Below the pieces are notes generated by a model. It had not been told where the DNA came from and searched no databases. It worked only from the letters and a program-made list of their open reading frames with translations. A stretch of DNA of 63,630 bases, filler included, from Rhizaria sp. SCN 62-66 (taxonomy: Eukaryota): the NCBI GenBank assembly GCA_001724265.1. It is 3 parts of 3 records of this genome, joined end to end, with 100 filler letters (N's around TTAATTAATTAA, not from the genome) between each part and the next. Parts side by side here need not be neighbours in the genome. Positions count along the whole stretch, not along the records: positions 21,640 to 42,716 come from MEDY01000450.1; 2 more parts are not named here. One strand, written 5' to 3'. How positions within the stretch are numbered: the first letter of the stretch is position 1; every line of letters begins with the position of its first letter. A program made the position numbers and the translations under genes. Positions 1-63,630 of the stretch are shown here, in pieces.

Positions 1-2
1 AC

Positions 3-21539: not shown

Positions 21540-21639
21540 NNNNNNNNNNNNNNNNNNNNNNNNNNNNNNNNNNNNNNNNNNNNTTAATTAATTAANNNNN
21601 NNNNNNNNNNNNNNNNNNNNNNNNNNNNNNNNNNNNNNN
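21540..21639. other. Artificial contig-joining spacer (N44-TTAATTAATTAA-N44)
   Basis: Exactly 100 nt with a six-frame stop linker; identical in structure to the spacer at 42717-42816. Confidence 0.95.
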
Positions 21640-22824: not shown

Positions 22825-25800
22825 TCACTGCTCTCCGTTGGCCTTGCGCGCGCGCTTCGAGGCCCGCACTGTTCCGTTACTAAGCTCCAACTCGGACTCT
22901 GCGGCCTCGGCTGCAGCGGCCACAGCTGCAAGACCGCGATTGCTCTTGCGTGCTACTGCCTCCGTCTTGGTTGGAGCTGTTGCAGCAGTATCAGCAATAG
23001 TATCAGGAGCAGTATCAGCAGTAGTGCGCTTGCGGCCGCGAGACACGCCGCTAACAGCGGCATTAAAAGCAGATGCGTCTTTATCAACCGCGAGCGCAAT
23101 GTCGGGATCGACCTTGACACGAGCATTTGCCCGCGACCGCGACTGCAGCTTGGCATCAACTGAACCAACTTCAACATCAGATTCAGTATCAGACTCAGCC
23201 TTAGCTTCCGCATCAGACTCAGATTCGGATTCAGACTCAGCCTCGGAGCCAGTAGAGCCAGTGTCATCATTCTCGCTCGTGGCCTCGGCTGCCTTGGTGA
23301 TCTCTGACTTGACGCGAGTCGCACGAATATTTTTCACCTTAGTCTCGGTCACGGCACTACTCGCCTTCGCCATAGCAGCTGCGGCCTTAGCCTTGGTCTT
23401 CCCCTTTATCTCTGCACCTTTGTTGCCGCCCTTCACAGCCGCAACCTTCGCAGTCGCAGTCGAAACCGCAGTCGCCGCGGCAGCAGCAGCGGTGGCTGCG
23501 GCAGTGACCGCAGCGACAGGCGGCAGCGCACCCATGCCCGCGCCCGTCGCCGCCGCCGCCGCCGCCACGGCCGCGGCAACGCGCGTCCACCCGGCGACCA
23601 GCGCCAGCGCGCGGCCCGCGCCGGCGGCGGGCGCGGTTGGCGCGGCGGCCGCGAACCCAGCCCTGGCAGCGGCGCGCGGGCCCAAATGTTCGCTGCCCAC
23701 GGTCATCATCACCGCCGGGCCCAGCCACGCGCACTGCGGTGCAGCCACGCCGGCGGCGGTCGCGCTCGCGCCGTGGCCCGTGGCGGCGGCGGCGGTGGCG
23801 GCGGCCAAGGCGGAGAGCGCGGCGCGTTTCGGGCCCGCGGGCTCGGACGCGGCCGCGGTCGCGAAGGGCTGCAGATCCGTGGCCGCGGCGGCACGGGCCA
23901 CGCGTATCTCCGCGGCGTTCACGGCAACAGCGGCTGTGGGGGCCGCGTCGGGGCCGGCGAGGGCAAGCGCCGCCGACAGCAGCGATGACACTGCAGCGTC
24001 TGTATTGCGAGCAGTCAAAGCTGAAGTTGCAGTTGAAGTTGGAGGAAGCACAGGCACAGTGATAGTCAGAGGCAGCGCCAGCAGCGCGCGCGGGAGCAAA
24101 CCAGCGGGCGCCAGCGCAGCCACGACATCGCCCACCGCGCCCGCAAGCCTCGTCCTCTCATCTCCGCTCTCGATGTTCGTCGCGCGCAGCAGCGGCGCAG
24201 TGAGCGCGGCGGCGACGGCGGTCTGCCAGCGCACCAGCGGCGCCATGGCCGCGGGCAGCCGCGCAGCCGCTGCGGCAAGCAGCGGCCGCATGAACGCTAC
24301 CACCAGCGCCTGCGCGGGCGCGTCGGGGCCCGCGGCGTGCGTCAGCGTGCACGGCAGCGTCCAGCGCAGCGTGTCCAGCGGCAGCGGCAGCAGCGCGTAG
24401 TAACCCGCGGCCGCCGCGGCCTGCGCACGCAGCGGCACGGGCGCGGCAGCGTCAGTCTCGGCCGGTGCGGCGGCGGCGGCAGCGTCGGTGAGCGCGAGAG
24501 AAGCCGCGGCGGACTCGGCGGGCGCGTGCGTGAACGGCGCAAAAACGCCAGCCTGCAGCAGCCTCGCGGACTCGCGTACACGCGCAGCAGAGCTTGGCCC
24601 GGCACTCGCACTCGCGCTGCCGCTCTCCTCCAGCAGCGCAGTCGCGGTGGCCGTGGCCGTGGCGGCGGCGGGCGCGGCCGCGGGGCCGGCGACGTACCCA
24701 GGCAGGAAGACGGTGAGCAGCAGCGTGCGCACGAGGTCCAGACCGGCCACGGCGGCCGCAGCAGACAACAGGGCGCGCGGCGGCAACAGCAGAGCGCCGG
24801 GAACGCCGGCGACCAGAGAGCCAGAATGCGACTGCGACTGGGACTGCTGGGTCTTCGCGCGGACGTACGCGAGCGAAGCGTCTGTGACTACAGCAGTGGC
24901 CAGAGCGCGCTCGAGCACCAACAACGGGGCCGCGGCCGCGGACGCGACGCCCGCCAAAGCGGCAGCTGCAGCGGCAGCGCTGTTGCTGTCGCTGCCGCTG
25001 CTATTGTCCGCGGCAGTGGACTGCTCCAGCGCGGTAACGAGCGCAGGCAGAATGGCGTGGGTCAATAGGCTCTGCAGCAGCATCCAGCGCCGGCTCGCAG
25101 CGCCGCTCGCGCCGCCGATGACGGCGAGATTGGAGACGGTGGAGCCCGGGGCGGGCGCGGGGGCGCTGAAGGCCAGCGACAGGGCCAGAGCCGCCGCGGC
25201 AGCCGCGGGGGCCGCAGACTCGATCACAGCCGCAGAGGTGTTGTTCGCGGCGGGACTGGTGGCCGTGAGTGCGGGGACAAGCGTTTTGATGATGAACGTG
25301 TGGACGGCGATAGACTCAGCGCCAGCCCGCGCTTTAACGCGCTCAGTCTCACTCTCGGCCTCGTTCTCGTCCTCGCTGACATCGTCGCTGTGGGCCCTGG
25401 CGTCGGAGAGTGACACGGCGGGGAGTGAATGTGAGCAGTAAAGGGCGGCGGCAAACAGGGCGGCGCGCGGCAGCAGGCCAGAGCTGGCGGGAATGCTGAC
25501 GGAACGGTAAAAGCGGCGCGCACGGGCCGATGGGAGCGCGAATAAAATGCTTTCATCAGCAGTATCATCAACAACAACGTCGCTGTTAACAGCAATATCC
25601 AAGTCGGAGTCGGAGTCGGAGTCAGAGTCATGCATCGAATTGGCACGAGCACGGGCTCGAGCACTGACATCAGTATCGACAACAGGAGTGACGTTGACGA
25701 TACTAGCCAGAGCCAGCGAAGTCGCAGTGGAGGCGACAACGTCACCTGCAACCATGTTTTCACCAACATCACTGTTTGCGTCAGCAGAAGTCCAGACGCG

Positions 25801-26700
25801 CGTCGCAACGGCGGCGAGCGCAGGCAGCCATACCAGAGCGCCCGCATCGCAAGCGACCGAGGGCGTACTTAGCCTGGGAGCGCTAAGGGGCACCGCGGGC
25901 AGAGTGGCGGCGCCGATGCCGTTGACGCTGCCCAGCCAAACCTCCAACGCACCCGCAACAGCTTCCACACTCGCAGTCTCGGTGGGCGCAGTGAGCTGGC
26001 CGAGCGCGGTGAGCATGGCCGCGGCAGCGTTGACGTTCCCGGCCGCGACCGCCACAGCCGCGACCGTATCCGCGGTCGCCAACACGTGCGGCGCGGTCAG
26101 CTCGAGCGGCGCGCACTGCGCCGTCGCGGCGGCCGCGGCGGCCGTCGCGGCGGCGGGCGGCAGCGGCAGAGCACACGTGCGCAGGCGGCGGTGCAGCGCC
26201 CACGCAGCGGGCTGCGTCTCGTACGCCTGTGTGGCCTGCTCCAGCTGCCCGTAAAAGTAGCGTTGCGCGCCGGACACCGGGCCAGCGCCGCTGCTGGGGG
26301 TGGAATTGCCTGCGTACATGCTGCTCCCGGAGTAGCCTGTCATGCGAGAGTTCACGTTGTTGGAAGCGTTCGCGCTTTGCAGAGGTAGGACAGCGCCAAA
26401 GCACGAGCCCAGCCCGCCCGGCACCGCAGCGCCGGCGCTGGCTGCAGTCGTTGGCGTCGCGGCAATCACGCGCGAGATCGCAACGACGTCGAGCGCCGCC
26501 GTGGCGGCCCAGTCGTGGCGGCCCGCGCGCGCCGCCAGCGCGCCGTAGGCCTCGGCGCCCGCGGCGAGCGTGGCCAGCAGCTGCCAGCGCGCGACGCCAG
26601 GCCCCAGGTGCGGCAGCAGGGCGGCGCGCGCGCGCCCCGGCTTGGGCCCGCTGCGGAGCTCGCGCAGCACCCGCGCGCTCAGCGCAGCCTTCGCCCCCGC

Positions 26701-26745
<45 letters not shown>

Positions 26746-29700
26746 GGTTGCTTTGTGAGCGGCTGAGGGCTTCCCGCGAGAAACAGGCTTCTTGCGGGCA
26801 GCGTCAGCGTCGTCAAAATCGCTGTCAGCGTCGGCGTCGTCGTCTCTATCGGTGTTGCCGCCCGAGTCCGTGTCGTCGGCCCCGTCGTGCTCGTCGCCGT
26901 GGCCGTCGCCGCGGTCGCGCGGGGGCGCGTGTGTCAGCAAGGCCAGGTGCTGGCAGCCCCAGCGGCGCAGCTCCGCGCTCACCGCGCCCGCCGTCGCCGC
27001 CGCGCAGTCTACCAACAGCGGCCCACAGTCGCTTCCACGGACTCTACTGTCGCGGTCGCCAGTGCGCTCGTCGACAATGCGTTGTGCGGCCGTCAGCAGC
27101 GCGGCCAGCGCCCCCGCCACTCCGCGCGCGGCCGCAGACAGCGCGGCGGCCACTGCGGGACGCGAGCGTACCGTAGCGGCAGTCGCGGCGGCGAAGCGGG
27201 CGCGGGGCAGCGTCGTAGATGCGGTTGCGACCGCGGTGCCGACGGCGGCCACGGCAGCGGCGGCCACTAACGCGGGCGAGAGACGCATCGCCGCAGCGCT
27301 CGCGCCGCTGCTCCTGTCCGCCGCAGCCTCGTCGTCGTCGCTGTTGTTGCCAGCAGGGCGGGCGACTGTGAGCGCGTCCGCAATCGCGAGCGAGGCGATC
27401 TCGAGCAAGCGTCCGCGTCCCCTCCACTGGCCCGCGCCCGCCTCAGACTCCGCCTCATTCGCACTCGCTGTCGCTGTCGCGCCCGCGCCCTCGGTCTCGG
27501 CTAACTGTGAGTCCGGGGCGGTGAGCGCCGCGGCCGCGGCGGCCCCAGTGAGCACGAGCTACACCGCGCGCGCGAGCGTGGGCAGTGAGTGCGGCGCCGC
27601 GGCGGGCAACGCGACGTTATACAACGCGGAGAACGCGGCGGCAAGCGACTGGGCCTGGGCGCGGGCGCGAGGGTAAGATGTCTTCGGCTGCGACGGCTGC
27701 GACAGATATGAGCGCGGCTGCTTCTCAGGAACAGTCGCGACAGTGTCGGTCTTGACACTGCTTTTGACAGCCTTCAGCTTGACTGCCGCCTTGGCGTGAG
27801 CCTTGGTTGCAGTGCTGCCATCGGCGGCAGCGGCGGCAGCCTCAGCGGCGAGAATGCTCTGACGCGAGCGGGCAGAGACGATAGAGCTGACGTTCGTCAA
27901 TACATCCTCATCTTCTTCCTCCTCCTCATCATCGTCGCCGGCCTGCTTAATCTTGGACTCACCCTTGATAGAGACATGACGCTTAGTAACAGCAGAATCG
28001 CTGTCACTCATGTCACCGCCACGCGCAGCAGCAGCAGCAGCATGAGCAGGAGCAGTAAGAGAAGAAGTCGTCGTCTTTCTCGCGCCTCTCATCTTGCTGA
28101 CCGAGGCCACCGCAGCAGCCGCAGCGGCAGCGGCGGCAGCAGCCTCCTCCTCAGCCACTGCGGCAGCACCGGCACCTGCGTCCTCAGCAGTGCTGCCATC
28201 GGCGCCGCCAGTGAAGGCGCCCGCGGTGTCGAAATAACCCGACTGCAGCAACCATCCCACCTCAGCGTCCTCCTCCTCCTCATTGACTGCGCCCGCACTC
28301 GCGCTCGCGGCATCTGCGGCGCCATTGCCGTCGCTACCCGTGCTCTTGAGCGCGGCGCGGAGGGCGGCGCGCAGCGTCTTGTCGCTCTGGCGCAACGGCG
28401 CGAGCAGCCGCGTCGCTTGCAGACGCTGTGTGGAGCCGTAGCCGGCGTACAGCGGGCCGTGGTGCGCGCGCAGCCGCGCCAGCAGCGCGCGCTGCACAGG
28501 ATGCAGGTGCGGGTGCGGGGGGCCGCGCAGCTGCTTCTGCGCACGCCTCTGCGCCTTGGCGGCCGCAGAATCGTCGTCATCCTCATCGTTGTCGTCGGCA
28601 TCACTGTCAGACGCGTCCTCGTTCTCACCAGCGTCAGCGAGGGCCTCTGCCTCAGCGTCAGCCTCGGTTAGCGGCGCCGGCGCGACGTCGCCCGCGGCGC
28701 CCGGCATCACCGGCGCGAGAGCGTGGGCCGAGTCTGGCGCGAACCCGCGCGCCCCCGAGGCCTCCGCCGCGGCCGCCACACCCGCAGCGACGGCGCCCGC
28801 GGCGGCACCGCGCGCCGCGGCCGCGACCGCCGCCGTGCCGGCCGCCGCGAAGGCCGCGCGCACGCCCGCAGCGTCGGCGCGCATGGCGTCGGCCTCGGCC
28901 TTGGCGGCGGCGAGCGCGGCATCGAGCCCCGCGGCGCGCGCATCGGCCTGCTGTAGCTTCAGTGACAGGGCGGCGAAGTAGTCGCGCGCCTCGCGCTTCA
29001 TACTCTCGTGCTGCGCGCGCTGCGCCGCCATCGCGGCCTCGAGCGCGGCCGAGGCGGCGTCGAGCGCGTCGTAGTCGGCCTGCAGCGACGCAGACTCGGC
29101 CTTTACCGTAGCGAGCTCGCGCTGGGCCGCCAGCAGCGCGGCGCGCGTCGAGGCTAGCGTGCCCGTCTGCGCCGGAGCCGCCTCCGCCGCTGCTGACGCC
29201 AATGCTTCTGCTGTGCGTGCGTTTCTGTTGTTGCGCTTGGAAGCGGCTACGGACTATTTTTTTGCTGCAGGGGCAACAGCGGCAGCAGCGGATTCGTTGT
29301 CCGAGTCGGAGAGATCAGAGAAGATATCGTCGGAGTCTGACGCGACTGTAGCGCTAACGGATGGGGCACTGAGACCACTATCAGCAGGAGTATTTGTCAT
29401 GGGACGCGCAGAGGAGAAGGACTCAGACGTGGTTGCACCAGCAACGTTGGTATAACCATCGTCGTAATTATTGTTAGCATGACCTTTGGAGTCGTTGTGG
29501 TCGGAAAACCAGTCGTCGTCGTCTCTATCGTCAATGTTATCTCTGGCGTCGCCAACAGTCGCTGCAGAGCTTGCACTCGCGCTCGCAGTGGGAAGTGCGT
29601 TCACAGTACCAAACTGACCGTTATGATGGCCGGCTGCACTGCTGCTCGCACTGCTGCTGCCGCGACTGTTGCTAGCAACAGCGGGCATCGGAGAAGACAC

Positions 29701-39099: not shown

Positions 39100-41991
39100 T
39101 TAAAAAGATGAGTCACATACAATAATAGGACGACTTGCCTTCGTTACAACATCCTCTGACATGTTTGTTAGGTTGTTGTAATATAAACCAGAAGAGGCAC
39201 GTTGAGCAAACACTAAGTGATCTTGATGATCAACAACAAATGCGAACACATCTTCATCTTTGCTCGACTCAGATTCATCTTCAGCTTCAGTTATGTCACG
39301 CAGTAACAGGATTGGACGCGCAGCATGGCTATTATGCCCACAAAAAGAAACACGCCAACCATCGCGGGTTGCTTGGATTTTGTGTTTTTCTTGATCTGCA
39401 GGTGACAAAACATGTTGTCCTTCTTTGACACTATAATGTTTCTCTCCAACCCTATAACCTCGAACACTCCCACAAGAAAATTGACGGTGAAATCGCACAG
39501 CTTGTCCAGCATGGAGGCCCAGCTGACAAATGCGATCGCGTACTTCAGCAGAGGACGTATAAATTGTCGACATCCTTGTTGAGCTATCGCCATCAGCCTG
39601 CCACACGCCACGTAGAACTTCAAGGCATTGCTCTTGACTTAATAATCGAAACATCCAGGATGGGTAGTCTTTTGCACTACTGATTCGCCGTCGCCATTGG
39701 ACTTGTAAAATTTGTGCGCCGCGTTTGTAGTCTGCTCCGTGAGCATCGTGAAAAAACTTAAACAAACGTTTGTCTCCAATGTGCCAAACTCGATCGATGT
39801 TGTTTTTATCAAGTTTACCTTCCCATTCTGCGATATCAAGCAACTTAAACGCCGATTGCAGTGCCTCAATGTCAGCATCCTTACGTTGCTTGAATCGAAT
39901 CCAACCCATGGGAGCAGCAGATAGTTCGTCAGAGTCAGAGTCAAGAGATTCATATTCACTATACTCATCCTCTTCTTCTTCTTCCTTTACTCTTCCATCT
40001 TCTTCATCTTCTTCTTCATGTGTGTCACGGTCACGATGACTTATACTAGTACATGAAGTCAGAGTAGTACGAGGACTTGAAGGAGTATTCTTGTTGTCAC
40101 GGGAGCCAGACTTTTTACGAAGTGGATACGAAAGTGTACCATCTCCTAAGAAAAAACCATAAACAAACAGTAGCGAAGATACAAGCTACTCATATTTCAC
40201 ACCTTTAATCTAAGCAAGCTCTTCTGAAATACCGAGCGAGCTCATCATAAGCTTGAATTCATTCACTTCAGAATCAGTTATCAAAATACCATTTCGGGCA
40301 AAAGAAAGAAAACGCGCGCACTCAAGTTGGGAGATATCTCTACTCTTAACACGGTTTGCTTTAATCTTTGAAAACGTTGACCATTTGTTATATTTAAGAT
40401 CGCCCTTTCGCGAATGAATTTGTCCATCCCCATCTTTGCAGTTGCGATCTTTTGTGACTGTTGCAGTACCTTTCATCACAAACACGCCTTGATTGGGCGA
40501 AGCCATGAAGGATAAGTAGTTACTATAGGTTGTTAGTGATGATTGTTCTTCTGATTTTAAAGTTGGTATTTTCCCAAAAGCATCTGAAATATCTGGGCTC
40601 CATCGGTCTCGCTCACCTTGACTTGTGATACTTGCAGCGGTCTTGTTGCTTGGGCTGATTTCAGCTGTTTTCAGGAAGTGTACACTGAATGGACGGTACA
40701 TAATGTTCTGAGTCTTAACGTCATAGCACGCAAGTTTTAACGAAGCACTAGCTGCACTTGATACGATCTTAGCAATATCTGACACAAACATAAACCCAAG
40801 ACTAGTTAACAACCTAGTTGACTTGGTGAAGTAACTCTTTGGCAAGACACTCATCCCTTGGTGTCCAAGACTGTGAATAATTGTGTCATCGTCAGAGCTG
40901 TCAGCATCTGATGAGCTCGAGGCAGCTTCAACTTCATAACCTTCATTTTCATGTTTCTGACGAGACCGTCGCGACCTTTTAGCATCCCCAGAAACATTTG
41001 TACCTTCGAGAGATTGCTTCCCTCTTGTGTTTGATAGATGCTGAGGATAAGTATAAACAGGGACAGCGCTTGAGCTCTTCGTCAAGTTCACCTGCACACA
41101 GCTTTGAACACAAAACCGATTTCTTCGAAAAATACAATGACCAACAACAGCAGCTCCACGATGTCTCATACTATTAAGTTTAAGAACAATATACAAACCC
41201 CAATTTGCCGTAAGAACAAAGCCGAAGAGATAGTCTGTTTGACATGCAAGAAAGTTAAAAAATGGGTTATTCTACAGCTATGTTGTTGAACTGTTGTTTT
41301 TCTCACTTAAGTTTACAACGATTAAAAAACTGATACAGACAACGGCTGAAACTAGGTAAACAAGCATTAGCAGTCCTTCAACACTCCACATGAGAAGAAG
41401 AAGGCATATAAATTCAATAATGCAACCAATAATAGTATAGAAATTGATTGACTTCTTGGTGTTGCCTCCTGATACAAAGCTTGACACGCATGATTGTACA
41501 ATATGTGGTGAGTTGGAGTCAGCATCTGGAACGTTGCCGTGCTCGCTAGAGCAGGACATATTAGCATAAGTCCACTGCAGTTGCAACTATGACTGCACTG
41601 ACACAACACTGGTCTTCACGTATGTTGTAGTCAAGGAGCCGTCCAGCGCGAGTGTATGTGAGTCCTTGAGCGTGATGTGGGCATGTTCGAGCGATTCAGC
41701 CGTTGTGTTGTTAAACATTGTCGCGGAATGGCCCATAGACGCTGGCACGCACGCGGACTAAGCGCCAGCTAAGCCAATGAAGCGCAGGAATGTGCAAGCA
41801 GACTCGACGTTGTGCGTCTGTGAAGCATTCGCGTCAACGACACTTGAACTTAAAATTTGGATTGGTGCCATCACAAGCAGAATGGCTACTAAGAGAAGAT
41901 AATGGCTCATCCTAGTAGAATAGGAGGAATGAGAGACCAAGGTCGGGTCAGCATGGTCGGCTTGAAGAATGACTCCACTTGTGATTAACAT
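39100..41991 (-). CDS. Signal-peptide/multi-TM protein fused to a degenerate Hint (intein) domain and LAGLIDADG endonuclease (963 aa from ATG 41991; 936 aa from ATG 41910), 6 in-frame TAG codons
   Basis: ORFs 41758-41991, 41278-41586, 40210-41196 and 39100-39909 share one frame. The only interruptions are TAG at 41758, 41587, 41278, 41272, 40210 and 40186, with no TAA/TGA in 2.9 kb of AT-rich DNA. Intein block A-like YFTKSTRLLTSLGFMFVSDI; LAGLIDADG motifs LLFVYGFFLGDG and LEVLRGVWQADG; block H-like IYTSSAEVRDRICQLGLHAG; F/G-like VFAFVVDHQDHLVFAQRA...ASRPIIVCDS. Ends TAA. Confidence 0.8.
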
Positions 41992-42352
41992 TGTAAGCTT
42001 AACAGTGTACCACAGATGACTTAAACAAAAAATATTTCAAGTAGTTCATCATATAATAAACGACAACATCGCAAAAATCATCGGGTTAGCGAATATACGA
42101 GTCTTACTTAGGACTAGTATGATTGTGGAGACAGAAAAGTGGGTCCGTCCCACGGTCGAATTCTCACTTGCGGTAAGTGGTATTGTAAGCTTGTCACTAG
42201 TCACCACAAATCCACCTTTAGCTTGTGGCCTCGAACTGACTGCAGAGCTTTGCGAATTATATTATTTTTTTTAAAATTAAAAAAAAAAAAAAACACTGGG
42301 AGAGCATTTTTTAATGCATCCAGACGAAAATACGTCCAGACAAAAATATATA

Positions 42353-42426
42353 TGCGGATTCCGTGATTTGAACACGGGACCTTACGATCTTCAGTCGGAC
42401 GCGCTCCCAGTCTGTGCCAAATCCGC
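42353..42426 (-). tRNA. tRNA-Phe (GAA), copy 1
   Basis: GCGGATT TG GCAC AGACTGGGA GCGC G TCCGA CTGAAGA TCGTA AGGTC CCGTG TTCAAAT CACGG AATCCGC A. Perfect acceptor and T stems, GAA anticodon, downstream T5 Pol III terminator. Confidence 0.9.
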
Positions 42427-42516: not shown

Positions 42517-42590
42517 TGCGGATTCCGTGATTTGAACACGGGACCTTACGATCTTCAGTCGGACGCGCTCCCAGTCTGTGCCAAATCCGC
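42517..42590 (-). tRNA. tRNA-Phe (GAA), copy 2
   Basis: Identical to copy 1; followed by TATATTTTT. Confidence 0.9.
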
Positions 42591-42648: not shown

Positions 42649-42716
42649 TGCGGATTCCGTGATTTGAACACGGGACCTTACGATCTTCAGTCGGACGCGC
42701 TCCCAGTCTGTGCCAA
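42649..42716 (-). tRNA. tRNA-Phe (GAA), copy 3, 5' end cut by the spacer
   Basis: Identical to copies 1 and 2 up to the N run. Confidence 0.85.
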
Positions 42717-42816
42717 NNNNNNNNNNNNNNNNNNNNNNNNNNNNNNNNNNNNNNNNNNNNTTAATTAATTAANNNNNNNNNNNNNNNNNNNNNNNNNNNN
42801 NNNNNNNNNNNNNNNN
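42717..42816. other. Artificial contig-joining spacer (N44-TTAATTAATTAA-N44)
   Basis: Same 100-nt structure as 21540-21639. Confidence 0.95.
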
Positions 42817-46560: not shown

Positions 46561-47138
46561 GCCAGACAACACGCAGTGAGGGACTTTCGTGATCGCAAAG
46601 CTTTGTTGTTGCTGCGGCTGAACTGGACAACCAACTTTACCGTTGGGCCAGTGATGTTATTTGGTGTTTTTGTGAATTAATAATACGTTTATACAGTAGA
46701 GTGAAGAAAATACACACGAATACAGAAAGTTTCAGTCCCGTAATATGCGTTTATAAAGCGTGATATGTGTCGATAAGCATTTGCACGCAGTTGCCGGACA
46801 CAGACTAGCCGTTTTTGTGGGCTCGAGTGCCTCCTGCGATGACGATCAACAACTATGAAGAAGTCGGTGTATGGTCCGTTAATGAACAGGTTACTAGAAT
46901 GTCAGGATATTTTACTTACTTTCACGTTTGTTTTTCTTTTACCATTGCGGATAACGTTTTTTTGACTCCACTATATTGTTTTCAGTGGTCCTGAAACAGA
47001 CACCCAACTCTCTCCACAAGAGCGACGTAACGCTTCTTCCCTGCAGAGCCACGACGCACGCTACGCGCGTGACTGACATATAGCAAACTAAGCTTAGACT
47101 TATTGCTGAAAGCCGCCTTATTACTGGCGCAGGACGCG

Positions 47139-48022
47139 ATGCCAGTCTCAGCCGGCTCCCGCCGCCCCGACACTGCCCGCGCCCCTTCATCGTCGTCCGC
47201 CTACGGCGGCGGCGCGGGCGGCGCGGGCGGCGCTGGCGGCTCTGGGGCCTTGGGCCCGCTGGCAGGCACAGATTTGGACGCGCTGACGACGGACGAGCTG
47301 CGGCGGCTGTCGTCAGCCTTCCAAGACACGCCATCGCAGACGCTGCTGTTGTCGGCGCTCGAGCGCCGTCTGTCGTCCTTCTCGGCGCGCCCCGCCACGG
47401 CCCACACCGCGCGCCCGGTCGCCGCTGCGGGCGCCGCTGCGCAGTACGGCCCCTTACGCGCGCCCGCGGCCGCAGCGACGCTGCCACGCGGGTTCACATC
47501 TTTCGCAGCGCCAACAGAGGCATCATCGTCATCGTCGTCGTCGTCTCTCGCGCGCACGCTGCCTTCTGCTCGTGCCAATAACAGCGCTGCCGCGCAAAAC
47601 AGGGCGCGGCGCGGCGGCGCTGCCAGCGCGGTGCCCAACTTTCTGCGCCCCACGGCCGCGTCGAACTCCCAGGGCGCCGGCAAGCGCATCCTGCCGCCGG
47701 CCCTCATCGGGCTCAGCGCCAGTCACAGCGCCCGTCTCGGCGTCGGGGCGCGGCCGCAGCAGCAGCAGGTGCGGGCGCAGGCGCGGCAGCCGTGGCAGAG
47801 CTCAACCGCGACTGCGGCGGCTGCCGCTGCGAGCGCGACTGCCACAGGCCCACGTCGGCAGCAGCAGCAGCAGGCCCAGTCTCAGTCCCAGTCGGCGCGC
47901 GCTCAGTGGCAGCGGCCCTCGTCGCCGCCGTTCCCACGCGCGTACGCGCGCACCGGCAGCAGCGGCGCCGGCGGTGGCCGGGCCGGGCTCGACTCGACAG
48001 GCGCCTTCATCGCCGCCAACGA

Positions 48023-48055
<33 letters not shown>

Positions 48056-51000
48056 TGCCAGTAGCGTCGGCTTCGGCTCCGGATCCCGGGGCGTGTCGTT
48101 GCTGTCTCATCCCCCTAATGCCCGCAGCCAGGGCAACGGGGTCGACGACGTCGACGACAGCGCCGCTTTATACGCCGACGACGCCGCCCAGCGCAGCGGT
48201 CTGTATCGCGGCGAGCCCGCCACCTCCGGCGTGTGGACGGTTCCCGGACCTGCCGACGACGACAATACCAATCACGACAACAATGAGAATGACGACCCTG
48301 ACGCAGCGCACCGCAACGCGGAGGTCGCGGCGGTGACGCTGGCGCTTGAGGTGTGGGACGGCGAGCGCCCACTGCCCAACAGCAGCAGCAACGGCACCGC
48401 TCGCGGAGGCAACAAAAACGCGGCGCGTTTCAACCCTGCGGCCGCGGCTGCTGCGGCCGAGGCGGATGCGGCGCGCGCGCAGCTGTCGGCGCTGGCCTGG
48501 GAGGCCGAGGCCGACCGGCGCGCGGCCGCTGCCGCTGCGGCGGCCACGGGCGCGGGCGCGCGGCGATTCGCACAGGCCGCGGCCGCCGTCGAGAGGCTTG
48601 CTGTCGTCGCTGAGAACACTGCGCGCGCCGCGGCGAGTCAGAGCAAGCTCCAAAAGCAGCAACAGCAGCAGCAGTCGCTGCAGAGCAAAGGGACGGCGCC
48701 TGGGCTGAGTGCGAGTGTGCGGAGGACCAAGAGCAGCACCCGACGCGCGGATAGTGGTGACGACAACGACAACGACGAAAACAGGCGCAACGGCTGCAGC
48801 CCCGCGACTGCGCCCTCACAACCGCAACAACAGCAACAACTGCAACAGCAGCCGCCGCAGATGGCGCCGCAGCTGGCGCCGCCCTATCTGCCGCCCACTC
48901 CCTGGGGCGGCTACGGCGGCTACGGCGCCCACGGCGGCGGCGGCGGCGGCGGTGCGATGGGTATGGGCATGGGCATGGGGATGGGTGAGGCGATGATGAT
49001 GTCGATGCTTATGGCGCAGCAGCAGCAGTTTGCGTGGCAAATGTACACCCAGCAGCAGCAGCACCAACACCAGCAGCAGAAGGAGGCTGCGCGCCGCCGT
49101 CGCCGTCGCCGCCGCCGCCACCGGGGCGGTTACAGCGACGACGACGACGATGACGACGACAGCGACGGGAGCCGAGGTTACTCCGACTCGGACGCCGGCT
49201 CTGGCTCCGGCTCTGGCTCGGACCGTCGCCGCCGCAGCAGCCGCCGCCGCAGCCGCCGCGGCGCCCGCAGCGGAGGCAACGACAGGCGCAGCGGCGGCGG
49301 CCCCCCCGGCGCGGCGTCCCTGCAGCGGCGCGGGTCGATCAACCCGCTCGAAGTCGACCTGGACATGGATTTGGACTCGCCAGACGCGGTCACATACACC
49401 AAGCAGCCCCTCGCCAGCGCGGCGGCGACGGCGACGCCCAGGGCCGCGCCCGCGACGCCGGCGACGCGCGGACTCTCTTTGCTCTCGCCGGGCTCCCCGA
49501 ACCCCGGCGCAAGCGGCCTGGCGGACCGGCCCGTCTTGGGCGCGCTACGGCCCTCGCTGGCGTCCCCGCCCGCCACGCCCCGGGTCTCGCCACCGGGCCT
49601 CAGTGGCGGTGGCGGGCTCGGCGGGCTGTCGCTTTCCGTGCCGCCGACGCCGCAGGCCGCCGCGGGCGCAGGGCTTTCGCTCTCGGGCTTCGCGGTGCCG
49701 CCTGCGCTGTCGCTGGCGTCCTCTCTACCGCCGCAGCCGCCGCAGCCGCCGCTGCCGCCGCAGGAGCCCGAAGCCGAGACCGAGGCCTCTGCGCCCTACG
49801 CCACCCTCGCGCGCGCCATTAACGACAGCAGTAACAAAGGCACAGACGCGGTGCCGCCGCTGCGCGCGGCGGCCCCGTCGACGCGCAAGCACGCGCCGCC
49901 TGCGCTGACCGCGCGCGTGGCCGCGCTGCTCTCGGCGCCGCCGCTGCGGCTGGCCGTGTCGGCGCCCGCGCTGGCGCTGGCGCTGCCGCCGCTGCTGCGG
50001 CTCGCGGCCGCGCAGCTGCACCGCGCCGCGGGCCGCGCGCTGCTGCCCGCGACACTGCTGGCAGCCGACCCCGCGCTGGCGCTGGGCGGCGCCGCGCTCC
50101 GGGGCGGCTTCGCGGCGCTCGCGGCGACGACTGCCGCGGCATCTGCGCAACAGTCAGCCCATAGCGGTGCTGCTGCTGCAGACGGCGACGGCGACGGCGA
50201 TGACGAGGCCGCTGTGGCGGCGCACGAGAGAGACTCGCTGGACGACCTTGCGCTCGCACTCGCGGCGAACAACGCCAACAGCAATAGCGCAAGCGCTGGC
50301 AGTGCCTCTGCAGTCGAGGCGGCGCCGGCTCCGGGGGCTGAGGTGGCTGCGACTGCGTTTGCGGCGCGCTTTCTGTGCTGGGCCGCGCAGCTCGCCGCCG
50401 CCACTCTGCTGTCCCCCAACAGCGGCAGGGATAGAGGCAGCAACAGCAGCAGCGGCAGTCAGGCCGACGGGCCTGCGCTGCGGCGCGAGGCCGCGGCGGG
50501 GTTGCTGTGCGCCCTGTGGCACCACGCGCGCGCCGGCGCCACTATGGCGGGGACGGGGGTTCCTGCGTGCGAGACCGCCGCGCCGGGCCCCGGGCTGCTG
50601 CCGCTGCGCGTGCCGGCCGCCGCGGCGCTGGCGCTGGCCCGCGGCCGGCCCGGCGCCGCGGAGCTGGGCTGCTGGGCGCTGGCGCTGGCCGCCGCCGCGG
50701 CTGCGGACGCTGCGGCCGCGGGCGCGGTGATTCGCGAGGAGCCGGAGTTGGAGCCGGAGCGGGAGCGGGAGCTCGAGAGAGAGAGGCTGCGCGAGCGCGA
50801 GCGCGAGCGCGAAGCGAAGGCAGCGGCCGAGGCGAAGGCTGCTGCTGAAGCCAAAGCTGCCGAGGAAGCCAAGATTGCTGCTGAAGCTAAGGCCGCTGCC
50901 GAAGAAAAGGCTGCCGCCGAGGCCAAAGCTGCAGCTGAAGTCAAGGCTGCGACTGAAGTTAAGGCTGCTGCAGATGCGAAAGCAGCCACTAAGGCTAAAG

Positions 51001-52247
51001 CCGTCGCCGCCGCTGCCGCCGCCACTGCTGCCGCCGCAGCGGCTGCAGCGAAGCCCGCGCCACTGAGCGTTGTCAGCGGTGGGGAGAGCGAAAGCGAGGC
51101 GACCGAGGCGGAGACACCGCGGCCGGTGAGCGCGGGCGACGCGATGAAGCGCGCGCGCGAGGCCGCGGCGGCGCGCAAGGCGGCCAAGAAGGAGAAGAAG
51201 GACAAGCGGGACAAGAAGGACGTCGCTGCTGCTGCCGCTGTTACTGCGGTTGCAGAGCCGGCGACGCCAACGGGCAAGCAGCCCAAGAGCGCGCGCAAGA
51301 GCGTCACTGCCGCTGCCTCCGCTGCCGCCGCAACTGCTGCTTCGACTACCGCGCCCGCCGCGTCGTCAGCAGCGCCGGCGACGCCTTCGACCAAGGCCAA
51401 GTCTCTTAAGCCTGCAGCTGCTGCCGCCGCAGCCGAGCCCGCTGCGCCCGCCGCGCCCGCGCTCGTGGAGCCCCCCGCCGCGCCAGCACCGTCGTCGGTG
51501 GACACCGAGGTCCGCGCCACGGTCCGCGCGCTAGCTGCGGCCGCCACCGAGGCCAAGGCCCTGACGCAGCGCCTCGCGGCCGTCAACAACACTGTCGCTC
51601 ACAGCGGCAGCGAGGCGGCGGCGGCGACGGGGCTGCGCGCGCTCGCAGCGCGCGCGCTGAGCACCGACGACGAGCTGCGGCTCTCGAGGCCGCCCTTCGC
51701 GCTGCTGCACGGCGTGCTGGCGCTGCTGCACGGCGCGTGCCTCGAGGCGCGCGCGGGGTTGGCCAGCGCGCGCAAGCTGCCCAGCGAGGTCGGGCTCATG
51801 CCGCTCGCGCTGCTGCCGTCGCCGCTGCTGCTGGGGGCCGCGCCCGCGGCGCTGCTGGCGACCACGGACGAGGGCAAGACGCTGCGCCGGGGCTTTGTCA
51901 CCGCGCTGCTGCAGTGGCTTCACGCGGTCGCGCAGCGCCGCAACGACGCCAGCGACGCGTACGCGTTTCCTGAGGCGCGGCGCCTGCTGCGCGGCTGGTT
52001 CTTGCTCCCCGAGGGCGCGAGCACTGCTGCTGCGGCCGCTGATCATGCTGCTGCTGCTGTTGCTGATCCTTTTGCAGCGGTAAGTGGGAGCGCGCGTGCG
52101 GAGGCTGCGCGCGCGCTTGCGAGCGCGGCACTGGCGGGCAAGGGGCCCGAGAAGACGAACCGCGTGCTGCAGGCCGTGCTCGCGGTCACCGTGGCGCGGC
52201 TCCGCGAGGGCGTCCAGTTTGAGGAGGAGCAGGCGAAGAGCAAGTGA
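47139..52247 (+). CDS. Large low-complexity protein (~1702 aa) with EAKAAA repeats and a C-terminal IFT54/TRAF3IP1(MIP-T3)-like CH domain
   Basis: Uninterrupted ORF ending TGA. The C-terminal motifs LSRPPFALLHGV and LAGKGPEKTNRVLQAV resemble the IFT54 motifs LSKPPFRYLHDI and VAGHEPERTNELLQ. Confidence 0.75.
50811..51000 (+). repeat. Degenerate 18-bp coding tandem repeat (EAKAAA, about 10 units)
   Basis: EAKAAA EAKAAA EAKAAE EAKIAA EAKAAA EEKAAA EAKAAA EVKAAT EVKAAA DAKAAT in the translation. Confidence 0.85.
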
Positions 52248-55383: not shown

Positions 55384-56124
55384 GACGCTGGCGTTACGGT
55401 CTCCTGATGTGCGTGTGCTTAGGGTTGTGTAGGTTGATACGGGTGCAGTGAGGATGGAGTGCCACAACAACAGACCAGAAAGAGGAGCTTAGGGTCGAGT
55501 AAGCGGCGTTGCTATGCCTTGACGGGAAGACGGAAAGCGAAGCAGGTCTGCAGACGGAGAATCAGCAACGAGACAGAAGACGAGAGACAAGGAGGGTGAG
55601 CACGAGGCTCGGGCGCATTGCATGTTGACGAGTTAAAACGCAAATTAAAAGAAATATCAACGCAGTATCTCGCGATACAAAGGCACTAGCACGTTGTTTG
55701 TGTCTTAGTTATTGAGATAACGCGGTAAAGAGAGAGGGAGACGTCTCCAGTCAGCAAGCTCCGACAGGGGCGAATCTTTTCTCATTGATCGACGCGAGGA
55801 TCGGCAGTGGCGGCAACGGGAATTTACTAAGATATTGTGCACATAACGTCCAAGCGACGAATCATCACACACAGGTATCAGCCGATATACAGCACGCATA
55901 ATCCGGATGCGAAATTTAGCTGCACACGCGAAACAGAGACGGCATTTTTTGCGAACCACCTCGTGGTAGCGCCAGAAAGTTGATTCGTGGTTGGCCAGGA
56001 TATTGCCTTCGCCATCTCGTTTTTCCCTTCGTCAACAGTCGTTTTACAGCGTTTTTTACGACCTTTAACACTTTTTATCTTTTTATTTTATTTTACACCC
56101 GCCCAATTTTGCGTTAACCAGAGC

Positions 56125-59100
56125 ATGAGCAAAGGAAAGAAAGGAGGCCCCATTTCGCTCTCCATGTCGCTGGGCGAGGAGCAGGTCTTCGACCCCGATG
56201 CGGGCCGCTTCATCGCTGCGCAGCCTGTTGCCAAGAAGCCTGCTGCTGCTGAGGGGCCCAAGTTTGGCCCCGCGCAGACCACGGGCGCCGCGGCCCCCGT
56301 GGTGATGCCCGCAGCAGAGTCCTCCCGCTCGCCGCCAGCGACCGCGACGACAGGCAAGCAGCCAGGCGCAGCAGCAGCAGCAGCTGCCAAGCCTGCTGCT
56401 GCTGCGCCGAAGCTTACCCCGGCCGAGGCTGCAGCCGCCGCGGCCCGCGCCGCGCCCGCGCCCGCTACTTCTAGGCCCCTCCGCGGCAATCACAACAACA
56501 AGCTCCACGGCCACGGCGCCAGCGACAACGACGAGGACAACGACGACGACAACGACGAGGGCGCGAGCGCGGGCGTCTCCACCGCCGCTGCCGCCGCCGC
56601 CGCCTTCCCCGCCGCGCCCGAACTCCTCGTGGCGGCGCCCTAGACCGCGCCGGAGCCCGACTTCGAGCCTGGGCCGGATCCCGACGCGCACATCGTGTTC
56701 GAGGTCGACGAGATGACTGCCAAGGCGCTTGCGCTCGAGCGCCGCTACGCGCGCAAGGCCGGCGCGCGCGGGGGCGCCAAGACTGCCGCCGCATTACCCG
56801 CGTCCGCCGCGTTAGTCTCGGAGGACGGCGGCACCGAGATCGTTGTCGTGCGCAGCAGCACCCGTTCGCGCTCGCGACCCCGCGGCACCGGCGTCCGGCC
56901 CGACAGTGACGACGACGACGACGACGACGGCGGCGGGCGCGGGCGCGGGCGCGCCGGGAAGGCCGGCAAGGACGATAAAGACGACGACGATGAGATGATG
57001 CGCAAGTTCACCGTCGTGTCAAACATCGAGGGCCGCTCTGGCGCCACGCTCGTCGTCGGCAGCGCCAGTAACAACAATGGCGGCAAAAGCACTGACAGCT
57101 CGAGCAGTGCGAGTGCTGCGCCTGCTGCGCCCTCGACTGCGACGGCTGCGCCCAAGAGCAAAGCCGAGGCAAAGGCTGAGGCCAAGGCTGCCGCGAAGGC
57201 CGAGGCCGAGGCCGCTGCCGCCGCCAAGGCTGAGGCCAAGGCCAAGGCCAAGACCGACGCCGAGGTCGATGCCCGCGCCAAGGCCGCGGCGGCGCGGGTG
57301 GCGGCGGACCGGCGCGAGTCAGAGGCCCGCATTGCGGCCGCCGCCAAGGCCGCCGCTGCGAAGCACCAGCAGCATCAGCTCGAGCTCCAGGGTAAGGGCA
57401 AAGGCAGCGCCAGCAGCACCAGCAGCACTGGCAAGGGCGGCAGCGGCAAGGTGAAGCACAGCTCTGCGCTGGGCTCCGGCTCCGACTCGGACTCCGAGGC
57501 TGGCGCTGGCCACCGGCGCGGCAACGCTGGCACTGGCCGGGGCAACGTCGCCGTCGCCGTCGCTGTCGCCGCTACTAACGACGGCGACGATGATGATGAC
57601 GATGATGACGACGACGACGGGCCTTTCTTGGACTTTGACGACGACGGAGGCCGCCGCCCCGCCTCCTCCAAGCCCGCTGCAGCCAAGGCCGGCGCGAAGC
57701 AGCCCGCCGCCTCCGCGACTGCGACCGCTGCGGCTGCAAAGCCCAAGACGAACACTACCAAGTCCACCGTCTCGGCGGCGACCGCGAGTGCGAATGGCAG
57801 CGCCAGCAGTTCCCGCGGCGACTCCCGCGGCGACGCCGCCACTGGCCCCGCCACCGCCTCCGGTTCGCGCGGCGACGGCGTGCGCTTCGGCGAGGCGCAG
57901 ACGGTCAGATTCGCGAAGGACGCGCCCCCCGCCGAGGTGGGCGCCGCCGCCGCCGCCGCCGCCGCCACCGCGTCCGCCACAGCGACGAGCTCGACCAAGA
58001 CTAGAGTGGGCGATAGCAGCCCCGCCGCGACCAAGACCCCGGCCACGACCACGTCTGCTACCGTCCCCAAGTCCGCAATCAAGCCCACGCCCGCGCCCGC
58101 GAAGCCCAAGGCGAAGAAGAAGAAGGGCTGGTTCTGCGGGCTCTGTGCGGGCGGCGCCGACGATGACGACGACAAGGCCTCCGTCTCAGCCGCCGCGGGC
58201 GCGGAGGGCGCCGCCGAGGGCGCGGCAGACGGCGTGGGCATGCAGCAGCGGCGCCCCCGCCCCGACACTATGCGCGGCACGGAGACGGAGCTGGCGCTGG
58301 AGCTGGAGGTACAGGCCGTGGCGGCGACGCGCGGGGACGCGGCCGCGCGCGCCGCTCAGTCCCGCGAGCAGGCGCGCGCCGAGGCGCTGGCGCGCGCGGC
58401 GGACCCCCGCGCGCGCGCCGCCGTTGCGCTGCACCACCCTGACGCGGCGCTGAACCGCATCGACCTGGGCGCGGACGACGACGACGACGACGGCGACGGC
58501 GGCGACGACGACAATGACCGGAAGGAGATGCGGGTAACCGTGGGCATCGAGCTGCCCGCGGCTGAGGCAGACAAGGAGAGCGCGGCGGCCGCGGCGGCGG
58601 CGGCGGCCGCGGCCGCCGAGGCCAGCGACCCCCTGACGAAGCCAAAGCCAGTTCCCGAGCCGGAGCCCGCGCCCGCCGCCGCTGCGCCCGCGCCTGCGGC
58701 CGTCGCGGCGGGCGCGGGGCTGTCTCGGCTGGCGGGCCTGCTGGAGGGCCGCGCCACCGCCGCCGAGGCTGAGGTGCGCGCCGCGCTCGAGGCCGCGCGC
58801 GCGGCCGAGGAGCGCCGCCGCCTGGCCGAGGCCGACGCCGCCGCGCGCGCTGCTGGCGCCGACGCCGCGCCCGCCTTTACGGCCGCGCTCGACGCCGCCG
58901 CGGCGGCCGAACGCGACGGGGAGCTCGAGCTCACCGATCGTGGGCAAAGTGACAGTGGGCAGGGTGACCGTGAGCACGGTGACCGTGGGCAAGGTCAGGG
59001 TGACGGTGGGGGTGAGGGGACCGAGTTCGAGCTGGCCGTCGTGTCGCGCCGCGGTGGCAAGCGTCGCAATACTGCTGGCGGCGACGACGACGACAACGAT

Positions 59101-61005
59101 GGCGAGGACGCCGAAAGCGCCGAAGCGGCCGCCGCGCGCCGCGCCGCCGCCGTCGCCGCTGCGGCGGCCGCTGCCGAGGCTGCGGAGGCCGCCGCCGCCG
59201 AGGCCGTCGCCGCGGAGGCCGCGCGCGCCGCGGCGGACGCCTGGCGCGCCGAGGTGAACGCAGCGCGACGCGAGCTGGGGCTGGCGATGCTGACCGACGC
59301 GCAGCTCGACACGGCTTTCACGGACACGTTCGAGCGCGCGGGCGGGCTGTGGAGCCTCTACGCGTCGCCCACGGCGCCCATTCCCGCCGCGAACAGCAGC
59401 GGCAGGAGCGAGAGCAAGAGCAAGAGCAAGGGCGAGGCCGAGAGCAAGAGCGAGGACGCCGAGGCCGCGGCCCCGGTGTCGCTCTTCGATCTCGTCGCCG
59501 CCACTGAACAACAGCAGCAGCAGCAGCAGGAGCAGGAGCAGGAGCAGAAGCAGAAGCAGAAGCGCGTCGGCGCGACCACCGTGGCGACTGAGGCCGCGGC
59601 AGAGCACCCTCTGTCCGAGGAGGAGGAGGCGGCGGGGCGCGCGCGGGAGCAGCGCCGCGAGATCAAGCGCGCCGCGGCCGCCGCCGAGGCCGCGGTCGCC
59701 GCCGCGGAGGCCGAGGCCGCGGCCGCCAGGACTGCCCGCAAGGCCGCGCGTAAGGCGGCGCGTCTCGAGGCTCTCGCGGCCGACTCTGCCTCTGGCGCTG
59801 CGCTTGCGCCTGCGCCTGCGCCCGCGTCGGTGGCGGGCGCGGGCGTGTTGATCCCGGAGCTGGAGGGCCTGTTCGACCCCGAGGCCTTCGTCGCGCGCGC
59901 CTTCGAGGCCGACGGCTCCGTGGACCCCCTAACGCACGCCGACGCGGGCACTGGCGCTGGTGCCGCTGCTGCTGCTGCCGCTGGCACTGGGATTAACAAC
60001 GCCGATCACGTCGACGACGAGGAGGAGCAGCGGCGCCTCTTCATGTCCGGCGCCGCCGGCGTCACCGCCGGCAGCGGCGACGGGCGCACCAGGAGCAAGA
60101 AGACCGCGGGCGGCACGGCGGTCGCGTCGCGCGCGAGTTTGTTCGGGCACGACGACGAGGCCGACCGCGATGACAGCGACGGACTCTTTGGCGCCAACTC
60201 CGACGCTCACTACAACAACACTAGTGCGCGCAGCAAGCGCGAGGCTGCCGCTGCCGCTGCAACTGCAACGGACGCTGGCGCTGGCGCTGAGGGCGGTGGC
60301 GGCGAGGGGCTGAGCTCGACGGATAAGCTGCTGGAGGAGCTGGTGCGGCTGCGTGGCGAGGGCGACCTGCCCGACGTGGGCGACACCGAGAACGAGCCTC
60401 CGCTCGAGGGCGACAAGCTAGAGGTACGTCGCAGTTTATACTCGTTCGCCTATCGTTAGCAAAGCATTGATGTGGCACAAGCTGTAATGAACATATCCGA
60501 AATCGAATTACGACATATTTTGCATATATAACATACTTCTACATCTTTATATTTCTTTGCTACATTTTTATCGCTATCTCACCAAGTTGTGTTCTATCTT
60601 GTCTTGTTTTGTCTCACACCACAGGCATTCCTGGTCGACACGGTGTGGCAATGGGACGAGGGCCTGGTCTGCTTCGCCGCCAGTGGCGTGCTGCTGACCT
60701 CCTCCGCGCCCGCCCAGTCCTCTTCGTCCGCCGCGGCGGCGCAGTGCGAGTGGCGCGTGGAGGGCGCAGTGCTGCGCGTGCTGCTGGGCGCGCACGGCGT
60801 CCACGAGCTGCGGCTGGCTTTGTCCCGCCGCGAGGCAGGCGGCGTGCGTCGGTTTGACTGGCGGCCCGTGCACCTCATGCTTGTCGGCGCAGTCAGGGGC
60901 GCGGCTGAGGCCGGGAACGGCTTCCCGCACGCCTGGCTCGCGCGCAAGAGCGCGGAGCTCGGCATGGGGGCCGGCGCCGCGGCCGACGGATGCGTCATAG
61001 TGTAA
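56125..61005 (+). CDS. Large Ala/acidic low-complexity protein (~1559 aa, 2 exons, 1 in-frame TAG) with a small beta-rich, possibly PH-like, C-terminal domain
   Basis: ATG 56125. TAG 56641-56643 joins ORFs 55987-56643 and 56695-60459 in frame. Intron 60424-60624 (GTACGT...CAG) joins in frame to exon 60625-61005. Ends TAA. Confidence 0.75.
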
Positions 61006-63105: not shown

Positions 63106-63630
63106 CTGTCTGCAAGACAGAGGCGAAACAACGACAAGGTGCGAAGGGCAGGTGAGTGTTAACGGTATTCAGACAAAGATTACAAACAAGTGGAGTGTAA
63201 ATAAGTGTTCTGAATGAGACATTAAAAATGAGAATGAATCATGTCGAGTTTTACAAAGACAAAGTATAAAATTTGCATCCGACGATGAGATGGTTGAGAA
63301 ATGTAGCATTTTTGACCTTGGCGTTTCACCCCAACGGATTCATCGCCACACTACATTGTTCTATTTCTTCTTCTTTGTCAACCACCGTCACCAATTAAGT
63401 CGCAGTCTTATTAATAGCTTAAAAACATTCATAAATAGGTGCGCGACAGCGATGTACACGCTCATATATTATATCTTATTAATTATATTAGTCGCAACTG
63501 TACTTGACACCGTTCAATTTCGTTCATATTTTGTTACCGCCGACATTCAGCATAAAATACCAAGTCTCACAGGCTCACACTGGGGCAAACACCACCCACA
63601 GCCGTTTCGGGGCGGGCATATAAAGGTGGC

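Follow-up and report, generated by a model that had tools for sequence, protein, structure and literature searches.

Can an intein lose splicing and remain in use as a gene of its own? An intein-derived region, hereafter the element, on the minus strand (40833–39112) of a 63-kb window raises this question. The window, which is the whole stretch of DNA that we analysed (63,630 nucleotides), comprises three parts of the genome assembly of Rhizaria sp. SCN 62-66 (GCA_001724265.1), and the element lies in the part taken from MEDY01000450.1. A preliminary description of the locus held that selection had discarded protein splicing and kept the endonuclease, as in the domestication of the yeast HO gene. 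The reading that we favour, with middling confidence, is that the element is an ex-intein: a stand-alone gene from a bifunctional intein, lying outside any host protein, apparently unable to splice and probably intact.

Ancestry and splicing residues

A phmmer search of 1.84 billion representative proteins returned 207 matches to the element at E ≤ 1e-3 and 68 at E ≤ 1e-10; two of the matches are the window's own 214-aa and 269-aa protein pieces. The relatives align with the element on both sides of the nuclease domain. Among the 27 best relatives, Pfam recognises a host domain in 21 (3 of these 21 also show intein or LAGLIDADG domains) and no family in the other 6. Hosts in the family include XPB, MetRS, CysRS, family B DNA polymerase, XRN, dual-specificity phosphatase, protein kinases, cyclin, Rpb1, Sec23, SNF2, KIN17 and MIF4G. 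The intein junctions, marked here by slashes, can be read in MetRS (P0008; ...YI/CFSKSTRVLT...ASRPIIVGN/CGTDE) and in CysRS (P0011; ...IE/CFGEDTRVLT...ASRPIIIGQ/CSAMS). The element is 25–32% identical to inteins of this family and has the same blocks A, B, F and G, two LAGLIDADG motifs and K..W motif, in the same order, as those of MetRS, CysRS and PolB (P0010). Judged by its sequence, it is a descendant of eukaryote-type inteins with a nested LAGLIDADG nuclease. Inteins of the family are embedded in conserved host proteins, and in them Cys1, T-x-x-H, the block F Cys and a Gly-Asn/Gln end before Cys are retained; the element has none of these splicing residues and no C-extein. Nor does it interrupt a host protein in frame between an N- and a C-extein, as a class 1 intein does.

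Routine profile scans would have missed this ancestry. Pfam reports only LAGLIDADG_3, at E 0.05 and short of the cut-off; NCBIfam gives nothing, PHROGs only chance-level rows, and the PDB chains nothing by phmmer and one chance row by profile. The nearest protein-cluster neighbours of the C-terminal piece carry LAGLIDADG_3 and Hom_end (score 0.92), which serves as a lead only. A profile of the intein family, run against the six-frame translation of the window, detects the element as the sole locus (E 3.6e-74), with no second or intact copy of the family in the window.

We modelled a 584-aa reading with AlphaFold2 and a 30-row alignment. The model has a predicted local distance difference test score (pLDDT) of 82 and a predicted template modelling score of 0.84. 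It contains a predicted two-fold alpha-beta-beta-alpha-beta-beta-alpha LAGLIDADG core, and the splicing (Hint) fold, whose blocks A and B precede the nuclease and whose blocks F and G follow it, appears to be retained. The sole long weak segment is residues 256–313, where pLDDT falls below 50; it belongs to an insertion (query residues 248–317) that does not align to any relative, in line with the long acidic insertion already noticed after motif 1. The best solved matches in Foldseek are the TliVMA and PhoVMA inteins, PI-SceI, PI-PfuI and PI-TkoII, with I-DmoI on the nuclease core (template modelling score, TM, on target ~0.6). PI-SceI (the VMA1 intein), the archaeal VMA inteins, PI-PfuI and PI-TkoII match best across both domains, with E values of 1e-6 to 1e-3 and TM on target of 0.42–0.55; they are 7–12% identical to the element, and all of them splice. 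The best-matching predicted viral structures are giant-virus inteins, those of Pandoravirus inopinatum PolB (E 1.3e-19) and Emiliania huxleyi virus RNA polymerase (E 4.9e-15), which are true inteins within polymerases and 13–14% identical to the element.

For a census of the family, all matched segments of the 148 relatives listed (P0004–P0151) were aligned to a profile from 15 complete inteins. These 15 were chosen from the same 148 by a pattern that requires both ends and admits only the shorter form of block A. The block registers proposed for the element held in this alignment, and the codons assigned to its splicing and nuclease residues are all in place. Where the family has Cys at position 1 (93/93), the element has Tyr. 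Its block B reads SPNQ in place of T-x-x-H, so that the Thr found in 115/121 family members is Ser and the His found in 119/121 is Gln. The block F Cys (138/141) is Ala, a change that the preliminary description had not recorded; the block F His is kept, as in 102/141 family members. At the C-terminal end the penultimate residue, Gly in 128/139, is Cys, and the last residue (Asn in 92, Gln in 44 and Lys in 1 of 137) is Asp. The +1 residue is Ser, compared with Cys 127, Ser 8 and Thr 2 among 137 family junctions; Ser is acceptable there for an intein junction, and the Cys-Asp that precedes it lies outside what defines one. Counting this Ser, three codons and a TAA follow block G, bearing out the view that essentially no C-extein exists. 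Tyr at the first position also sets the element apart from C-terminal autoprocessing domains of the Hedgehog/Hog type, in which a Cys there drives self-cleavage.

The nuclease residues behave in the opposite way. Both LAGLIDADG acidic residues, in GDG and ADG as expected of a two-helix enzyme, and the conserved Lys are kept in the element, although the family retains Asp 1 in 89/130, Asp 2 in 107/150 and the Lys in 116/140 cases. Since these are the positions that the family often loses, the element is the reverse of the family pattern. Retention of both Asp is unremarkable alone, with ~0.68 x 0.71 of the family keeping both. In the family at large, ~30% of copies are without one LAGLIDADG Asp and have intact splicing residues. 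Of the 110 columns with ≥80% conservation among the 15 inteins, 72 are retained in the element. None of the 5 catalytic splicing columns, which were picked after seeing the data, is among them, against 72 of 105 for the rest (Fisher p 0.004). This comparison supports changes specific to the splicing positions rather than even decay, and with them a loss of splicing.

The assignment of Tyr to position 1 depends on the register of block A. The family has two lengths before the conserved Thr-Arg, Cys plus four residues (37 instances) and Cys plus five (59 instances), and under the longer form the Ser that precedes Tyr would become residue 1, a placement that the preliminary description had itself named as telling against it. 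We favour the Tyr register because it scores +7.1 bits in a position matrix, against -6.0 for the Ser register, and because in a tree of the N-terminal part 16 of the 17 other members of the element's clade have the short form (support 0.92). The Ser one residue upstream leaves a small doubt about the missing nucleophile.

TAG codons and the integrity of the frame

Under the standard code the locus splits into two stop-to-stop frames of 353 and 361 codons. Two in-frame TAG codons break the frame that would otherwise carry both LAGLIDADG motifs, and the frame is open if TAG is sense. These codons, and the extension of the open frame upstream to 42036, are absent from the preliminary description. 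The sequences before and after the TAG pair are homologous to the relatives without any change of frame. Over its full 978 codons the frame contains no TAA, no TGA and six TAG, while the other two frames contain 18 and 23 TAA, 17 and 48 TGA, and 6 and 15 TAG; in the 255 codons upstream of 41272, TAA and TGA number 0 versus 11 and 10. TAG accounts for a share of 0.283 of one-step nonsense changes in the element frame, and six of six interruptions being TAG has p ~5e-4.

The same pattern recurs elsewhere in the window. The frame at 5290–12060 (plus strand) has one break, TAG 6910–6912, inside a repeat unit that aligns across the TAG to four others (E 2.7e-13 to 4e-4), and its signal-like N-terminus and C-terminal membrane anchor lie on opposite sides of that codon. 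Opposite TAG 6910 the other repeats have Gly, Gln, Asn and Pro. In the frame at 22828–29400 (minus strand), TAG occurs at 29256–29254 and 27561–27559; the G+C content at third codon positions (GC3) is 0.8–0.9 flanking 27561, and the next ATG is 91 codons on. A third frame, 55984–60528 (plus strand), has TAG at 56641–56643 and 60457–60459. The TAG-interrupted frames of the window never have TAA or TGA inside, and each ends in one of these two codons. All three joins between reading frames with ≥300 codons on each side fall at TAG, although out of frame TGA is ~5x commoner than TAG; one of the three is noise, as it is antisense to an SMC gene. We think it likely from these patterns that TAG is a sense codon in this genome. 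With TAG apparently translated in this genome, the element is probably an intact gene. The relevant passages of PMC5304391 describe reassignments of UAG only, with UAA and UGA as true terminators and low UAG use in highly expressed genes.

Two other accounts of the TAG codons were considered. Introns around them were rejected, as the GT..AG spans available in that region measure just 6 and 17 bases. An origin from an organelle or from a TAG-sense donor was set aside, as nuclear-type genes of the window show the same TAG pattern.

Several points weigh against a sense reading of TAG. The inference comes from one 63-kb window, in which no tRNA with a CUA anticodon was found. TAG is the easiest one-step stop in GC-rich genes (share 0.43–0.82), so that such genes lend the sense reading weak support, and several long GC-rich genes have no internal TAG (SMC, SF3a60, AP-4 mu, 47073–52244 and 61489–63168). 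The amino acid encoded by TAG is not assignable from the element because both codons sit in variable columns.

If TAG were instead an ordinary stop, the element would be a recent pseudogene, a dying copy of a once stand-alone ex-intein, with no working nuclease because two nonsense codons separate its LAGLIDADG motifs. The breaks at 40212 and 40188 under the standard code fit this view, as does the presence in the protein library of separate 214-aa and 269-aa pieces, the latter starting after motif 1 at the second frame's first ATG. So do a GC3 like that of the surrounding non-coding DNA, the long GC-rich genes free of internal TAG, and the compatibility of two stops with a short spell of drift. 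Against it stand the exclusive use of TAG among the six interruptions, the long upstream run without TAA or TGA, the coding continuity across TAG-only interruptions in at least two other genes of the window, and a complete lack of frameshifts anywhere in the element. On this evidence we consider a pseudogene unlikely.

Selection on the protein and its possible role

With the TAG pair taken as stops, a simulation of drift fits ~0.026 substitutions per site, at which ~5% of residues have changed. Once 20% have changed, no more than two stops are seen in only 1–2.5% of runs, and once 30% have changed, in none. Yet 38 of the 110 conserved columns are lost in the element. In trees of the C-terminal 258 columns from 107 sequences (FastTree and IQ-TREE), its terminal branch of 1.52 is the third longest. 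Together with the lack of frameshifts, these results suggest that the frame was being kept open while the element accumulated most of its divergence and lost its splicing residues.

The domains of the protein have fared alike. Conserved columns are kept in 25/37 positions of the N-terminal splicing part (catalytic columns left out), 32/49 of the nuclease and 15/19 of the C-terminal splicing part. This even conservation supports selection for the whole two-domain protein and not for the nuclease in particular. The claim that selection had discarded splicing and kept the nuclease thus stands in part: loss of splicing and selection on the whole protein are supported, and preferential keeping of the nuclease is not. 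Decay of the nuclease to the same degree as the rest would have told against the claim; the nuclease columns are indeed no better kept, yet both Asp and the Lys remain.

In the favoured reading of the element as an ex-intein, the protein would function on its own, either as a site-specific enzyme on DNA or as a DNA-binding protein. Its two LAGLIDADG helices would pack together, each offering its Asp to metal ions at one active centre, and the dead splicing fold could serve as a scaffold that holds the DNA. The splicing fold helps to hold DNA in PI-SceI and HO, with which the even conservation of the element agrees. Since the loss of splicing, purifying selection would have maintained the protein in its entirety.

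Several observations weigh against this reading. The fraction of conserved columns that it keeps (72/110, or 65%) is below that of intact members, each left out in turn (69–98%), and the nuclease domain is kept no better than the splicing fold. An acidic loop of ~60 residues directly follows catalytic helix 1. Close orthologues are lacking: a search with the 269-aa piece returned only the query itself within the searched length limits.

Its nearest relative in the C-terminal trees, P0013 (FastTree 0.966; IQ-TREE approximate likelihood ratio test 93.7), has the same Asp-Ser junction (...VGD/S) and keeps the two LAGLIDADG Asp, while its block F Cys is replaced by Val. However, the grouping joins two long branches, and the 10 rare residues common to the element and P0013 are not distinctive, being tied with P0006 (median 4). 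A search for close orthologues of P0013 with residues 1–330 returned only four distant inteins within the searched length limits. The predicted start of P0013, at profile position 148, may be an artefact of TAG read as a stop.

Finally, GC3 of the element is 0.31–0.38, against 0.55–0.93 in neighbouring genes. A selfish, weakly expressed or recently arrived gene therefore fits better than an old host gene. The proposal of HO-type domestication goes further than the data, which do not separate a domesticated, HO-like gene from a selfish, WHO-like stand-alone nuclease gene, and the GC3 is unlike that of a long-settled host gene.

The even conservation over both domains, with no focus on the nuclease, would also suit a protein that kept its fold and lost DNA cutting, serving instead in DNA binding, regulation or structure, perhaps tethered to a membrane if the upstream part of the frame is co-translated. 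Consistent with such a role are the long acidic disordered loop after helix 1, the Gly that P0013 has in place of the conserved Lys, the hydrophobic segments in the upstream part and the frequency of nuclease loss in the family, ~30% of whose inteins have already lost a LAGLIDADG Asp. The element, however, keeps both Asp and the Lys, P0013 keeps both Asp, and nothing positive points to another role; we regard a dead nuclease as improbable.

A still self-processing protein, in which the Ser before Tyr is residue 1 and the C-terminal Asp with Ser +1 cleaves or splices to free the nuclease from the upstream part, gains from the longer block A form (59/96 instances), the +1 Ser of 8/137 family junctions, the Asp-Ser junction of P0013 and the ability of inteins ending in Asp or Gln to splice, but is very unlikely given the matrix scores and short-form clade neighbours that favour Tyr, the block B His to Gln and block F Cys to Ala changes, the absence from the family of Ser at position 1 (0/93) and of Asp as last residue (0/137, with P0013 left out as its end is unaligned), and the mere three residues available for joining.

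Genomic setting and comparison with known systems

The features of the locus are collected in Table 1. Linkers with stops in all frames join the contigs of the window, so neighbourhood across them means nothing; owing to the second linker, the element's contig ends at 42716, inside an array of tRNA-Phe(GAA) genes. The array lies ~0.3 kb upstream of the 978-codon frame. The stretch around the element, bounded by a 1801-codon gene that ends at 38542 and by the tRNA array, has 37–52% G+C.

Table 1. Coordinates of the element, its parts and the features around it.
Feature	Positions	Strand	Description
Intein-derived region (the element)	39112..40833	-	574 codons; N- and C-terminal splicing (Hint) parts with a double-motif LAGLIDADG domain between them
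Longest TAA/TGA-free frame	39100..42036	-	978 codons (42036-39103) and TAA stop (39102-39100); six in-frame TAG
Candidate starts of the 978-codon frame	41991, 41168, 40854	-	ATG
Upstream part of frame	40834..42036	-	401 codons, four TAG; hydrophobic stretches, basic cluster, acidic Ser-rich patch
Block A	40774..40833	-	YFTKSTRLLTSLGFMFVSDI; Tyr codon TAC 40833-40831 at position 1
Block B	40474..40524	-	SNYLSFMASPNQGVFVM; SPNQ is TCG CCC AAT CAA 40500-40489
TAG pair	40186..40212	-	40212-40210 and 40188-40186; in variable linker before LAGLIDADG helix 1
LAGLIDADG motif 1	40126..40173	-	LLFVYGFFLGDGTLSY; GDG is GGA GAT GGT 40146-40138; acidic residue GAT 40143-40141 kept
Insertion after motif 1	39916..40089	-	Ser/Thr-rich, then acidic; not in relatives; predicted disordered
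Conserved Lys	39670..39672	-	AAA; SAK..P.W motif (SSAKDYPSW here)
LAGLIDADG motif 2	39580..39627	-	CLEVLRGVWQADGDSS; ADG is GCT GAT GGC 39597-39589; acidic residue GAT 39594-39592 kept
Block F	39196..39249	-	VFAFVVDHQDHLVFAQRA; Ala at family Cys position; block F His kept
Block G	39112..39150	-	VVTKASRPIIVCD; Cys-Asp, TGT GAC 39117-39112
Tail after block G	39100..39111	-	TCA TCT TTT (Ser-Ser-Phe), then TAA; no real C-extein
Tandem near-identical tRNA-Phe(GAA) genes	42353-42426, 42517-42590, ~42649-42716	-	Last copy cut by contig end; spacing 164 and 132 bp
Linkers	21540-21639, 42717-42816		N(44)-TTAATTAATTAA-N(44); all-frame stop spacer joining contigs

For the 401 upstream codons no relative and no family match was found. 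The 139 codons just 5' of the element (40855–41271, minus strand) have a coding-like G+C content by codon position (0.52, 0.43, 0.30); the same stretch contains a basic cluster resembling a nuclear targeting signal and, after it, an acidic patch rich in Ser.

With long intron-free reading frames (GC3 0.55–0.93) and spacers of 38–59% G+C, the window looks like nuclear protist DNA. Recognisable eukaryotic proteins are an SMC protein, the AP-4 mu subunit and SF3a60. Picked relatives of AP-4 mu from a chlorarachniophyte, a plasmodiophorid, a thraustochytrid, an oomycete and a dinoflagellate are ~49–52% identical; another relative is 78% identical, and a plant protein at 46% scores higher than the picked ones. 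By this protein the host resembles a protist of the stramenopile, alveolate and rhizarian (SAR) type. The frame at 5290–12060 encodes 2257 codons (GC3 0.58) with ~200-residue repeats, a Cys-rich region and weak TSP1 and EGF-like matches; no family passes the cut-off.

Several proteins of the intein family carry two inteins. P0020 and P0025 have a long insertion inside the nuclease domain with paired Cys-X-X-Cys motifs, zinc-ribbon-like, a feature worth noting in view of the zinc fingers of HO and WHO. A pattern scan of prokaryotes (one genome per species, 185,579 species) found a single locus, L001. Its positions 1–3065 hold a 1021-codon open frame for a eukaryote-type protein kinase with two family inteins, on a contig labelled as a metagenome-assembled genome of Dehalococcoidales; this contig is probably eukaryotic DNA binned with bacteria.

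A joint reading of these data can be offered tentatively. A non-fungal protist may independently have made an intein into a long-selected stand-alone LAGLIDADG gene that does not splice, with P0013 as a sister that shares its Asp-Ser junction. The gene may be written in a nuclear code with UAG as sense, so that gene calling under the standard code hid it by splitting it in two, and the lineage may hold one of the largest eukaryotic intein expansions, reaching kinases, cyclins and phosphatases. For scale, PMC10710043 gives, in its account of earlier work, four inteins as the richest eukaryotic genome before the Anaeramoeba study, and a term search of that paper returned no mention of pseudogenes, domestication or free-standing intein forms. 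The portion of a 2018 intein survey concerned with domestication raises it for Hedgehog-type domains only (PMC5784728). Paper searches on inteins and HO-type domestication listed no case outside yeasts.

If the element is an independent case in a distant protist, the path from intein to stand-alone gene would be repeatable, and there would be a second system in which to ask what a dead splicing fold does for a LAGLIDADG nuclease. If TAG is sense genome-wide, the organism would join the few eukaryotes with UAG-only reassignment, as far as these are listed in PMC5304391, and its current protein predictions would end early at each TAG. The relatives, distributed over many host proteins, are in themselves a resource on intein movement in eukaryotes.

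The closest functional parallel is with HO and WHO of budding yeasts. The sections of PMC7282813 on these genes present them as the only well-described stand-alone genes of intein type that do not splice, confined to a few yeast genera. As described there, they combine an intein-like splicing fold with LAGLIDADG, have no exteins, do not splice and form genes of their own, and the element appears to do likewise, its lack of splicing being deduced from its residues. According to the same sections, WHO copies are often pseudogenes or orphans. The differences are also clear. HO and WHO have a C-terminal zinc finger and no motif G (PMC7282813), whereas the element has motif G, no zinc finger and ends three codons later. 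In the cases that PMC7282813 describes, WHO is adjacent to the gene that it targets, and duplicated pieces of this gene are present; for the element, comparison of both flanks with the window by blastn and tblastx, up to the contig end at 42716, revealed no duplicated fragments of a neighbouring gene. The hosts of HO and WHO are yeasts, and that of the element would be a SAR-type protist. With the HO/VDE lineage the element has no sequence kinship (phmmer against PDB chains, including PI-SceI), and the structural match has 10–11% identity. By analogy, our best reading is that the element would work like HO and WHO, yet is not a member of their family.

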